64,000 nt of DNA from Escherichia coli (lineage in GTDB: Bacteria > Pseudomonadota > Gammaproteobacteria > Enterobacterales > Enterobacteriaceae). The DNA lies in assembly GCF_030013205.1 (NCBI RefSeq), contig NZ_CP122648.1; one strand, given 5' to 3'. Under the pieces are notes generated by a model. That model saw only the letters and a list, made by a program, of their open reading frames with translations. It was not told the DNA's origin and did no database searches. Position numbers and translations under genes: made by a program. Positions 4,629 to 50,918 of the stretch are shown one piece after another (the stretch's first letter is position 1; every line of letters starts with the position of its first letter).

Positions 4629-5525
4629 ATGGCAGCAATCGCGTTTATCGGTTTAGGACAAATGGGTTCGCCAATGGCGAGCAATTTATTGCAGCAAGGG
4701 CATCAACTTCGCGTCTTTGATGTGAACGCCGAAGCTGTGCGGCATCTGGTAGACAAAGGTGCGACTCCCGCCGCCAACCCGGCGCAGGCCGCTAAAGATG
4801 CCGAATTTATCATTACCATGTTGCCGAATGGCGATCTGGTGCGCAGCGTGTTGTTCGGTGAAAACGGCGTTTGCGAAAGCTTATCTACCGATGCGCTGGT
4901 CATCGATATGTCGACCATCCATCCGCTGCAAACCGATAAATTGATTGCCGATATGCAAGCCAAAGGCTTCAGCATGATGGATGTTCCGGTAGGCCGTACT
5001 TCTGCAAATGCCATTACCGGTACTCTGTTACTGCTGGCTGGCGGCACCGCTGAACAAGTTGAACGCGCCACACCGATCCTGATGGCGATGGGCAGTGAGT
5101 TGATCAACGCGGGCGGCCCGGGCATGGGGATCCGCGTTAAGCTCATCAACAACTACATGAGCATCGCGCTCAATGCGCTTTCGGCAGAAGCCGCCGTTTT
5201 GTGCGAAGCCCTGAATCTTCCCTTCGATGTTGCCGTCAAGGTGATGAGCGGCACCGCCGCCGGTAAAGGCCACTTCACCACTTCCTGGCCAAACAAAGTC
5301 CTCAGCGGGGATCTTTCTCCCGCCTTCATGATCGATCTTGCCCATAAGGATCTTGGTATCGCCCTTGATGTCGCCAACCAGCTGCATGTGCCAATGCCGC
5401 TGGGGGCCGCCTCACGGGAGGTTTATAGCCAGGCGCGCGCAGCGGGTCGCGGTCGCCAGGACTGGTCCGCCATTCTGGAACAGGTCCGTGTCAGTGCCGG
5501 GATGACTGCCAAAGTAAAAATGTAA
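4629..5525 (+). CDS. yihU: 3-sulfolactaldehyde reductase (beta-hydroxyacid dehydrogenase family)
   Basis: 298-aa ORF; N-terminal Rossmann motif [14 protein letters not shown]; RBS aggagagg upstream. Confidence 0.9.
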
Positions 5526-43373: not shown

Positions 43374-43919
43374 TTATTTCAGCGTCGGTTTGTCGGTTAA
43401 ATGGGCGATTTCTCGGGCGAAATTCGCCACCTGCTCCCAATCGGTATAGACAACTTCTTTGCGCGTATCCGTTTCACCGCCTGACATCTTCATAATCAGC
43501 TTGATCATAAAACGGTCGTACCAGCGATAACGTGGGTAACGCAGCGCCCCGGCAATGACCGCGCAGCGATCGGGACGCCATTGCGAGTTCATCAGAAACT
43601 TCCGCGCGTAGCTGTTGGTCTGTGGAGTACGCTTCTCCGGTTTGCGCGCCACCAGGTTTACGGAATAAAAGGCGCTCGGCATCGAATTCAGTCGCGTCGC
43701 ATGTTTTTTGACAAATTCCTGGAACGCAGAGTGGTAGTGACCATAGCGAATAGAAGCACCAATGACCACACGGTCATAGTTTTCCCATTGTGGTTCTTCA
43801 ATGCGGTGCACATTGGCGACATCCGTCTGGATCCCCAGTTCTTTCAGTTCCGAAGCCAAGTAGGAGGCAATCTCGCGCGTTTGTCCGTCCCTTGTTGAGA
43901 AAAGAATTAATGTTTTCAC
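43374..43919 (-). CDS. hemG: Protoporphyrinogen IX dehydrogenase (flavodoxin-like, menaquinone-dependent)
   Basis: 181-aa [32 protein letters not shown]...; sits directly upstream of the rRNA operon as in K-12 rrnA. Confidence 0.95.
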
Positions 43920-45420: not shown

Positions 45421-46038
45421 TTATTCTTCAATCGCTAACAATTGCAATGAACCACGGCTAAAATCCGCCAGCTTTGCGGAAAATTCAGCCACTTTCGCCG
45501 CCGGAAGCGCCACCCGCAGCAGAACGAATGCCTGATAATCACTGTTGATAATTTTGCCGTCACACTGCCCCAGCAACGCTTCAATGCCGGTTAACTGACT
45601 ATATTCACATTGCAAAGTATATTCGGTTAATGGCGTCTTGCGTTGGGTCGTTAGCTGGCGCAGCGCCTGATTCACGCCGCCACCATACGCTTTCACTAAC
45701 CCACCGGTGCCAAGCAATATGCCACCGTAGTAGCGCACTACCACAGCGGTAATTTCCCCGACGCCGCTGCCCATTAGCTGGGCGAGCATCGGTTTACCTG
45801 CCGTTCCCGCCGGCTCCCCATCGTCAGAGAAACCCAGCTGTTGAGAATCATCCGGCGCACCCGCCACCCACGCCACGCAATGGTGGCGGGCATCGGGGTG
45901 TTCTGCTCGCACCGATTCAACAAACGCTTTCGCCGCCTCAACGCCATCGGTATGCGCCAACATCGTTATGAAGCGGCTCTTTTTGATCTCTTCAACGACC
46001 GTGACTGGTGCCGCAGGAATTAACCAGCTTTCCATCAC
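45421..46038 (-). CDS. yigZ: IMPACT-family protein YigZ
   Basis: About 204-aa ORF; start codon overlaps the pepQ stop. Confidence 0.9.
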
Positions 46039-47366
46039 GCCAGTTTCAGATCCCGGGTCATGTTTTCCACGTTGTTTTCGTGGATCACCACGTTGTCTTC
46101 GATACGAATGCCGCCGAACGGTTTCAGTGCTTCAATTTTCTGCCAGTTAAAGTGTTTACTGAACTGCCCTTCACGCCACGGTGCCAGTAGCGATTCGATG
46201 AAGTAGATACCCGGCTCGATGGTTAACACCATGCCCGGCTGGAGAATACGGGTGCAGCGCAGGTACGGATATTTTGCCGGTGCCGCGAGGTGCGTACCGC
46301 TATCATCCTGCATAAAACCGGCTACGTCATGCACCTGCAGGCCCAGCGGATGGCCGATACCGTGCGGCATAAACGGTCCGGTGAGATCGTTTTCGACCAT
46401 CGCTTCTTCACTCATATCGGTGATGATTTGATGTTTACGCAGCAATTTGGCGATGCGCTGATGGAACTGGATGTGGTAATCCACATAGCTGACGCCAGCT
46501 TTCATGGTGGCGATCAGCGCAAGTTGTTCATCATTTACGTCTTTCACCAGCTGTGCGTAGTCGTTGTCGCTTTTTGCCGACCAGGTACGGGTCAGGTCAG
46601 CCGCATAGCCGTTATATTCGGCCCCGGCATCCAGCAGGAAGCTACGCATCTCTTCCGGTGCCTGGTGGTCCAGTTTGGTGTAATGCAGCACCGCAGCGTG
46701 TTCGTTAAGCGCCACAATGTTGCTGTAAGGTACGTCGGTATCACGATGACCGGTCGCGGTCAGATAGGCAATGTTGATATCGAACTCGCTCATGCCAGAA
46801 CGGAACGCTTCTTCTGCCGCGCGATGACCGTTGACCGCCATTTTCTGCGCTTCACGCATACAGGCCAGTTCGTACTCGGTTTTGAAGGAGCGATAGTAAT
46901 GCAGGTAGTCGATCACCCCTTTCGGGTTGATGTTGCTGGCCTCAATACCCAGTTGCAGCGCACGTTCCGGCACCGGACCGATATAACCGATATTGCCGCG
47001 CGCAGCAGGCAACAGACTACCAATGCCATCGGCTTTCGGCAGCGCGATCACTTCCACATCTTCAGTCCAGAAGGAGGTCGGCAGCGGTTCGACGTTGTGC
47101 CAGTAATCAACCGGCAGATAGAACCACAGTTTCGGCTTATTCACGCCATCCACCAGCAGCCAGCAGTTTGGCACCTGAGTTACCGGCACCCACGCTTTAA
47201 ATTGCGGGTTCACTTTAAACGGATAGGGATGATCGTCGAGAAAAACGTTGAACAGTTCGCCGGAGTGAATAAGTAACGCATCCAGCTTGAAGCGCGCCAG
47301 CGCATCGCGAGTCCGTTCTTGTAAGGTAGCTATATGATTTTTATAGAGTGAGGCCAGTGATTCCAT
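46035..47366 (-). CDS. pepQ: Xaa-Pro dipeptidase (prolidase)
   Basis: 443-aa [29 protein letters not shown]...; M24B metal-ligand region [13 protein letters not shown]. Confidence 0.95.
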
Positions 47367-47513
47367 TTTTTACCCTTCTGTTTTTTTGACCTTAAGTCTC
47401 CGCATCTTAGCACATCGTTCATCCAGAGCGTGATTTCTGCCGAGCGTGATCAGATCGGCATTTCTTTAATCTTTTATTTGCATATTTTTAACACAAAACA
47501 CACACTTCGATGC

Positions 47514-47530
47514 ATCTGGTACGACCAGAT
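47514..47530 (+). promoter_or_regulatory. FadR operator in the fadBA promoter
   Basis: atctggtacgaccagat, a perfect palindrome fitting the FadR ANCTGGTCNGACCTNNT consensus, about 26 nt upstream of the fadB ATG. Confidence 0.65.
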
Positions 47531-47555
47531 CACCTTGCGGATTCAGGAGACTGAC

Positions 47556-49745
47556 ATGCTTTACAAAGGCGACACCCTGTACCTTGACTGGCTGGAAGAT
47601 GGCATTGCCGAACTGGTATTTGATGCCCCAGGTTCAGTTAATAAACTCGACACTGCCACCGTCGCCAGCCTCGGCGAGGCCATCGGCGTGCTGGAACAGC
47701 AATCAGATCTAAAAGGGCTGCTGCTGCGTTCGAACAAAGCAGCCTTTATCGTCGGTGCTGATATCACCGAATTTTTGTCCCTGTTCCTCGTTCCTGAAGA
47801 ACAGTTAAGCCAGTGGCTACATTTTGCCAATAGCGTGTTTAATCGCCTGGAAGATCTGCCGGTGCCGACCATTGCTGCCGTCAACGGCTATGCGCTGGGC
47901 GGTGGCTGCGAATGCGTGCTGGCGACCGATTATCGTCTGGCGACGCCGGATCTGCGCATCGGTCTGCCGGAAACCAAACTGGGCATCATGCCGGGCTTTG
48001 GCGGTTCTGTACGTATGCCACGTATGCTGGGCGCTGACAGTGCGCTGGAAATCATTGCCGCCGGTAAAGATGTCGGCGCGGATCAAGCGCTGAAAATCGG
48101 TCTGGTGGATGGCGTAGTCAAAGCAGAAAAACTGATTGAAGGGGCGATGGCGATTTTACGCCAGGCCATTAACGGCGACCTCGACTGGAAAGCGAAACGT
48201 CAGCCGAAGCTGGAACCGCTAAAACTGAGCAAGATTGAAGCCACCATGAGCTTCACCATCGCTAAAGGGATGGTCGCGCAAACGGCGGGGAAACATTATC
48301 CGGCCCCCATCACCGCAGTAAAAACCATTGAAGCGGCGGCCCGTTTTGGTCGTGAAGAAGCATTAAATCTGGAAAACAAAAGCTTTGTCCCGCTGGCGCA
48401 CACCAACGAAGCCCGCGCACTGGTCGGCATTTTCCTTAACGATCAATATGTAAAAGGCAAAGCGAAGAAACTCACCAAAGACGTTGAAACACCGAAACGG
48501 GCCGCTGTGCTGGGCGCAGGCATTATGGGCGGCGGCATCGCTTACCAGTCTGCGTGGAAAGGCGTGCCGGTTGTCATGAAAGATATCAACGACAAGTCGT
48601 TAACCCTCGGCATGACCGAAGCCGCGAAACTGCTGAACAAGCAGCTTGAGCGCGGCAAGATCGATGGTCTGAAACTGGCTGGCGTGATCTCCACGATCCA
48701 CCCAACGCTCGATTACTCTGGTTTTGACCGCGTAGATGTTGTGGTAGAAGCGGTTGTCGAAAACCCGAAAGTGAAAAAAGCCGTACTGGCAGAAACCGAA
48801 CAAAAAGTACGCCCGAATACCGTGCTTGCGTCTAACACTTCAACCATTCCTATCAGCGAACTGGCCAACGCGCTGGAGCGTCCGGAAAACTTCTGCGGGA
48901 TGCACTTCTTTAACCCGGTCCACCGAATGCCGTTGGTGGAAATTATTCGCGGCGAGAAAAGCTCCGACGAAACCATCGCGAAAGTTGTCGCCTGGGCGAG
49001 CAAGATGGGCAAAACGCCGATTGTGGTTAACGACTGCCCCGGATTCTTCGTTAACCGCGTGCTGTTCCCCTACTTCGCGGGTTTCAGCCAGCTGCTGCGC
49101 GACGGCGCGGATTTCCGCAAGATCGATAAAGTGATGGAAAAACAGTTTGGCTGGCCGATGGGGCCGGCATATCTGCTGGACGTTGTGGGGATTGATACCG
49201 CGCATCACGCTCAGGCGGTGATGGCAGCAGGCTTCCCGCAGCGGATGCAGAAAGATTACCGCGATGCCATCGACGCGCTGTTTGATGCCAACCGCTTTGG
49301 TCAGAAGAACGGCCTCGGTTTCTGGCGTTATAAAGAAGACAGTAAAGGCAAGCCGAAGAAAGAAGAAGATGCCGTCGTTGACGACCTGCTGGCAGAAGTG
49401 AGCCAGCCGAAGCGCGATTTCAGCGAAGAAGAGATTATCGCCCGCATGATGATCCCGATGGTCAACGAAGTGGTGCGCTGTCTGGAAGAAGGCATTATCG
49501 CCACTCCGGCAGAAGCGGATATGGCGCTGGTCTACGGCCTGGGCTTCCCTCCGTTCCACGGTGGTGCGTTCCGCTGGCTGGACACCCTCGGTAGCGCAAA
49601 ATACCTCGATATGGCACAGCAATATCAGCACCTCGGCCCGCTGTATGAAGTGCCGGAAGGTCTGCGTAATAAAGCGCGTCATAACGAACCGTACTATCCC
49701 CCGGTTGAGCCAGCCCGTCCGGTTGGCGACCTGAAAACGGCTTAA
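47556..49745 (+). CDS. fadB: Fatty acid oxidation complex alpha subunit (enoyl-CoA hydratase / 3-hydroxyacyl-CoA dehydrogenase)
   Basis: ORF 47430..49745 trimmed to [23 protein letters not shown] (RBS aggag 7 nt upstream); 729 aa. Confidence 0.95.

Positions 49746-50918
<1,173 letters not shown>

Follow-up and report, generated by a model that had tools for sequence, protein, structure and literature searches.

The 17-mer ATCTGGTACGACCAGAT / atctggtacgaccagat, read on the + strand at positions 47514–47530 of the window (the whole stretch of 64,000 nucleotides of Escherichia coli DNA that was analysed), is almost certainly the FadR operator of the E. coli fadBA operon. The operator is real, had been rightly interpreted in the preliminary description of this DNA, and is already known; it is a textbook element. 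Its sequence identity, its position relative to the published transcription start and its conservation were obtained in the present analysis; FadR binding, release by acyl-CoA and the size of repression are taken from the literature. The features of the locus, with the basis of each assignment, are as follows.

46035–47366, − strand: pepQ, divergent neighbour (ORF list, RefSeq; upstream in 72/72 Enterobacterales loci)
47445–47460, no strand assigned: candidate class I CRP site cGTGA-tcagat-CGGCA, centred at −61.5 (conservation, fixed spacing)
47463–47505, − strand: ArcA-P binding region, four 11-bp-phased direct repeats (Park et al. 2013, mapped to the window)
47478–47483, + strand: candidate −35 hexamer TTGCAT, −36 to −31 (conserved TTTGCAT block)
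47501–47506, + strand: candidate −10 hexamer CACACT, −13 to −8 (conserved in 67 Enterobacterales)
47514, + strand: fadBA transcription start, +1 (published K-12 numbering)
47514–47530, no strand assigned: FadR operator of fadBA, +1 to +17 (sequence, inverted repeat, literature identity, conservation)
47545–47549, + strand: Shine-Dalgarno sequence AGGAG, 6 nt before the ATG (sequence)
47556–49745, + strand: fadB coding sequence, 729 aa (ATG 47556; RefSeq of the identical and K-12 loci; conserved N-terminus)
49755–50918, + strand: fadA, 387 aa, second gene of the operon (ORF list, RefSeq)

Identity of the operator

The assignment to FadR and fadBA made earlier was borne out by exact identity: the site is that of the K-12 EMSA probe and of the crystallised 19-mer CATCTGGTACGACCAGATC, whose complete sequence occupies 47513–47531. 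The FadR EMSA probe for fadBA, ACTTCGACTCATCTGGTACGACCAGATCACCTTGCGG, was shifted by wild-type FadR and not by the W60G mutant; expression of a fadBA-lacZ fusion rose more than 3-fold on deletion of fadR and 3.5-fold in the fadR16 (W60G) strain K113 (PMC4259882). In the structure of FadR with the crystallised operator CATCTGGTACGACCAGATC, base-specific contacts are made mainly via the TGG of each half-site (PMC3592433); the recognition triplets TGG/CCA were found in both arms of the present operator. Both the 17-mer and the flanked 19-mer are the same as in the K-12 fadB operator OB (DiRusso et al. 1992; structures: Xu et al. 2001, van Aalten et al. 2001; cited in PMC3592433, PMC9329746), and the +1 to +17 position, the leader, the Shine-Dalgarno sequence, the ATG and the neighbouring genes are shared as well; the two loci differ only in the surrounding promoter, at four positions.

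The operator is a 7-3-7 inverted repeat with arms ATCTGGT (47514–47520) and ACCAGAT (47524–47530). It had been described as perfectly palindromic; this is accurate for the 7-nt arms and not for the whole site, the 3-nt centre ACG (47521–47523) being asymmetric, so that the reverse complement differs at these three central bases. Palindromy was rejected as evidence: perfect 7-3-7 inverted repeats occur about as frequently as chance predicts (8 in the window vs 3.7 ± 1.8 in shuffles), and the significance of the site rests on its identity to the FadR operator, not on its symmetry. The exact 17-mer is expected 7e-6 times per 64 kb; in shuffles 0.08 matches with at most 3 mismatches are to be expected, and the window contains just two, namely this site on each strand.

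The published FadR consensus is aaCTGGTCnGACC(T/A)Gtt, and the sites of fadL, fadE, fadBA and fadIJ overlap the transcription start (PMC9329746). No other site in the 64 kb comes as close as 1 mismatch to the published consensus core CTGGTCNGACCWG; the operator itself deviates at one of the 12 specified core positions, with A for C at position 8. A FadR matrix scan, suggested earlier as a check, gave the operator as the top match (14.6 vs 11.5 for the next) of a symmetric half-site model built without fadB, in which the left halves of six published non-fadB sites were applied symmetrically. In an asymmetric six-site matrix, also built without fadB, the operator ranked only 27th of 127,968 positions, outside the top 12, because the training sites of that matrix have degenerate right halves.

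The second-best match of the symmetric model is CGCTGGTACGACCGTTT at 43510–43526 (− strand), which has the 11-mer CTGGTACGACC in common with the fadB operator and 3 mismatches to the consensus core. From its position, and by analogy with locus L001, it appears to fall within hemG; the match is probably due to chance.

Relation to other FadR sites

The repressing operators of fadL, fadD, fadE, fadIJ, fadH and fadM share with that of fadB the common 17-bp consensus, the overlap with −10/+1 and relief by acyl-CoA. The operators of fadL and fadD have degenerate right halves, whereas the 7-bp arms of the fadB operator are perfectly symmetric; fadBA has one FadR site, fadL and fadD have two each, and repression by FadR is 5–10-fold for fadBA vs 2–3-fold for fadL and fadD. 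The sites of fabA and fabB (AACTGATCGGACTTGTT and GGCTGATCGGACTTGTT) are bound by the same protein and follow the same half-site pattern as fadB; FadR acts there as an activator, whereas the fadB site at +1 to +17 represses. Activating FadR sites (fabA, fabB) lie around −40, upstream of the −35 region.

Position of the operator in the promoter

Transcription start: Two published numberings were transferred to the window. The FIS site TTGCATATTTTTAACACAA was numbered −36 to −18 of fadBA by Feng & Cronan (PMC3460868); this string is found at 47478–47496, and +1 is therefore 47514. Four 11-bp-phased ArcA repeats (at 4029048/59/70/81) were placed by Park et al. (2013; ChIP-seq supplement) at U00096.2 4029045–4029087, −50 to −9 of fadBA, the operon being 27-fold ArcA-repressed under anaerobic conditions; the corresponding 43-mer was located in NC_000913.3 (offset 1977), where the implied +1 is 4029036/7 and the first operator base is 4029036. 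The two independent numberings thus put +1 on the first base of the operator, which accordingly spans +1 to +17. No fadB entry was found in the genome-wide transcription start site supplements that were searched.

Promoter elements: The claim that the operator overlaps the fadBA promoter applies to the start and the initial transcribed region (+1 to +17); the overlap does not extend to the −10 and −35 hexamers. The candidate −10 hexamer CACACT is separated from TTGCAT by 17 nt and from +1 by 7 nt. A simple sigma-70 scan of 47250–47650 gave no promoter above threshold; the poor quality of the two hexamers accounts for this and would suit a weak promoter that depends on an activator. In the upstream regions of 67 Enterobacterales, phylogenetic footprinting gave the conserved blocks TTTGCAT (−37 to −31), TTAACA (−26 to −21), CACACT (−13 to −8), the operator, AGGAG and ATG. 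The best ArcA repeat, TGTTAA, is the reverse complement of 47488–47493; the ArcA region contains 2 SNPs relative to K-12. Repression of fadBA by ArcA-P is synergistic with that by FadR (PMC9329746, PMC3460868).

Start codon of fadB: The operator had been said to confirm ATG 47556 as the start of fadB in preference to the upstream in-frame GTG at 47430. The choice of ATG is right, and agrees with the 729 aa of RefSeq; the operator alone is no proof of it, the evidence being the transcription start, the Shine-Dalgarno sequence and conservation. Since +1 (47514) is downstream of GTG 47430, this codon is not on the fadBA mRNA made from this promoter. GGAG was found 6–7 nt before the ATG in 80/80 orthologs, and the FadB N-terminus after the ATG is conserved (MLYQGETL in part of the orthologs). 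The GTG, 126 nt upstream of the ATG, is kept in only 9 of the 80, and in 48 of the 80 a stop codon is reached upstream before any in-frame start codon.

A 9-nt direct repeat, GAGCGTGAT, is present at 47426–47434 and 47442–47450 (copies 16 nt apart). Its upstream copy supplies the GTG 47430 that opens a spurious long ORF, and shows little conservation beyond the E. coli/Citrobacter group; the downstream one forms the left half of the CRP-like block treated below.

Locus and promoter allele

The 254 nt around the operator (189 nt of intergenic DNA and the first 65 nt of fadB) are 100% identical to E. coli strain CFSAN018748, and this region was present in 5425 of 5426 complete genomes. In the RefSeq annotation of the CFSAN018748 locus hemG, trkH, yigZ and pepQ are on one strand and fadB and fadA on the other, in agreement with the ORFs of the window; the two genes of fatty-acid degradation, fadB and fadA, are thus directly downstream of the operator. 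The fadR gene itself is not part of the window; in E. coli it has another chromosomal location.

When the entire intergenic region was aligned with that of K-12 MG1655, the operator, leader and start codon proved identical; the differences are confined to four positions, 47476 (A/G, −38), 47499 (C/T, −15) and 47511–47512 (TG/CT, −3/−2). These changes leave the operator untouched and could alter promoter strength, perhaps also the choice of start site. The −15 change (C vs T in K-12) falls within the first ArcA repeat and shortly before the −10 hexamer. The promoter allele of this strain is common in E. coli (2348 genomes at least 99% identical over the 254-nt query).

The fadB promoter region was found at 5430 places in the 5425 genomes, up to 3 per genome and once on a plasmid record; the extra copies could be due to duplication or to assembly artefacts. 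On the pepQ side of the intergenic region, the complement GTGCTAAGATG of a conserved block, CATCTTAGCAC (47403–47413), reads as an extended −10 element (TGnTAAGAT), and the block is a candidate pepQ promoter.

Conservation of the operator and alternative readings

Orthologous loci: 80 fadB loci, one genome per species, were chosen by FadB protein similarity only (65–99% identity, Escherichia to Vibrio). Absence of the site from orthologous promoters, named beforehand as the observation that would speak against the operator, was not seen at any of the 80. In the 300 nt preceding fadB the best match had 1 core mismatch at 79 of the 80 loci and 2 at the remaining one; of the control pieces taken from inside fadB, 318/320 had at least 3 core mismatches. 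The arms hardly vary among Enterobacterales and stop 22–28 nt short of the ATG; in Vibrionaceae AACAGGTCAAACCAGTT-like sites occur 39–57 nt before it. The 45-nt stretch that runs from the operator to the ATG shows no difference in 5414 of the 5425 E. coli genomes; strain R2, among the other 11, reads ACCTGG..., with a change at the non-core position 2.

Centre of the operator: The three central bases are ACG, ATG or AAG (A-N-G) in Enterobacteriaceae and Erwiniaceae, and CAT or CGT (C-N-T, the opposite orientation) in Serratia, Yersinia, Hafnia, Rahnella, Photorhabdus, Xenorhabdus, Providencia and Proteus. The C-N-T centre thus spans Yersiniaceae, Hafniaceae and Morganellaceae; C-N-A is found in Vibrionaceae, and the fully symmetric C-N-G in 0/80 species. 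At 79 of the 80 loci the one deviating inner position of the centre is the sole core mismatch; L078 has an extra mismatch in an arm. The pattern reflects only about 3 independent clades and may be due to drift.

Inverted repeat as RNA: The inverted repeat is transcribed, and the mRNA is consequently predicted to carry a 7-bp hairpin; the repeat might then matter mainly as RNA, the 5'-terminal hairpin stabilising the fadBA mRNA and protein binding being secondary. In the predicted fold of the leader (MFE −14.8 kcal/mol, z = −1.96) a 7-bp stem with a triloop occupies the extreme 5' end, and 5'-terminal stem-loops protect E. coli mRNAs. This reading is nevertheless very improbable: the arms are invariant and do not covary, and so show no RNA-specific signal; FadR contacts the very bases that are conserved; the arms of the Vibrionaceae sites are not fully complementary, yet the FadR half-site pattern is kept; and FadR binding and repression are experimentally established in the literature. 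A role of the predicted hairpin would be at most an additional side effect of a FadR operator. That the site is a chance inverted repeat without function, or belongs to a regulator other than FadR, has a practically negligible probability in spite of the commonness of such repeats (8 in the window vs about 3.7 expected), the sequence being exactly that of the crystallised, EMSA-verified FadR operator, retained at a constant spacing to the ATG in all 80 orthologous promoters and nearly invariant in 5425 E. coli genomes.

Conserved block upstream of the −35 region

Upstream of the candidate −35 hexamer a second conserved block was found, of the overall form (T/C)GTGATC...GCA and reading TGTGATC-N-(T/C)TGCA in most other genera. 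Its GTGA(T/C/A)C part is present in 72/72 Enterobacterales, 67–69 nt from the operator (sd 0.46 nt), and lies 65–1439 nt from the ATG of the divergent pepQ; the distance to the operator being fixed and that to pepQ variable, the block belongs to the fadBA promoter. Its interpretation as a pepQ promoter element was rejected on the same variation of the pepQ distance (65 to 1439 nt).

The centre of the block, 47452.5, corresponds to −61.5, the canonical class I position of CRP (the others being −71.5, −82.5 and −92.5). Relative to TGTGA-N6-TCACA (the core of the 22-bp symmetric site) the left half matches at 4/5 positions in E. coli (cGTGA); most genera match at 5/5, within a longer TGTGATC. The right half, nnGCA, is weak (2–3/5). 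Both halves together give 6/10 for E. coli and 8/10 for 22 species; about one shuffled region in three reaches such scores, and the match taken alone is not significant.

Expression of fadBA-lacZ falls in a crp deletion, but no CRP site was identified and indirect action via FIS was proposed (PMC3460868); a review of 2022 lists direct CRP control of fadBA as an open question (PMC9329746). Among the papers searched, none reported a CRP site in this block of fadBA. The CRP genomic-SELEX paper does not mention fadB or pepQ in its main text, and the two genes are also absent from Crp ChIP-exo supplements consisting of a 699-promoter table and a text file, neither of which is a list of Crp sites. 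Position and conservation make it possible, if not quite probable, that the block at −61.5 is an overlooked class I cAMP-CRP site of fadBA.

Proposed mode of action

In the absence of long-chain fatty acids the FadR dimer (GntR family, winged helix-turn-helix) would bind the operator, reading mainly TGG/CCA in each 7-bp arm. Placed on +1 to +17, right after a weak −10 hexamer, it would occupy DNA needed by RNA polymerase in the open complex, and fadB and fadA would be repressed. According to a review, FadR sites that overlap the start, that of fadBA included, block RNA polymerase (PMC9329746). Occlusion of the polymerase, rather than blocked promoter escape, is the literature model of the repressing step and is plausible from the geometry.

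Long-chain acyl-CoA, which releases FadR from DNA (PMC9329746; title of DiRusso et al. 1992), would be bound by the C-terminal domain of FadR and so take the protein off the operator, the operon being then derepressed 5- to 10-fold; expression of fadBA is 5- to 10-fold higher without FadR (PMC3460868). Under anaerobic conditions this promoter is also repressed by ArcA-P bound at −50 to −9, and its full activity requires cAMP-CRP.

Significance

For annotation purposes the site pins down the regulatory setting of fadBA and backs the start of the 729-aa FadB. The FadR operator of fadBA is among the best-characterised bacterial operators (footprinted, crystallised and used in fatty-acid biosensors), and its presence here is nothing new biologically. 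The candidate CRP-like element is possibly new: it is position-locked and deeply conserved, and direct CRP control of fadBA has never been demonstrated. If the candidate is a true CRP site, catabolite control of fadBA would be direct and not indirect via FIS, which would answer the question left open in PMC9329746.
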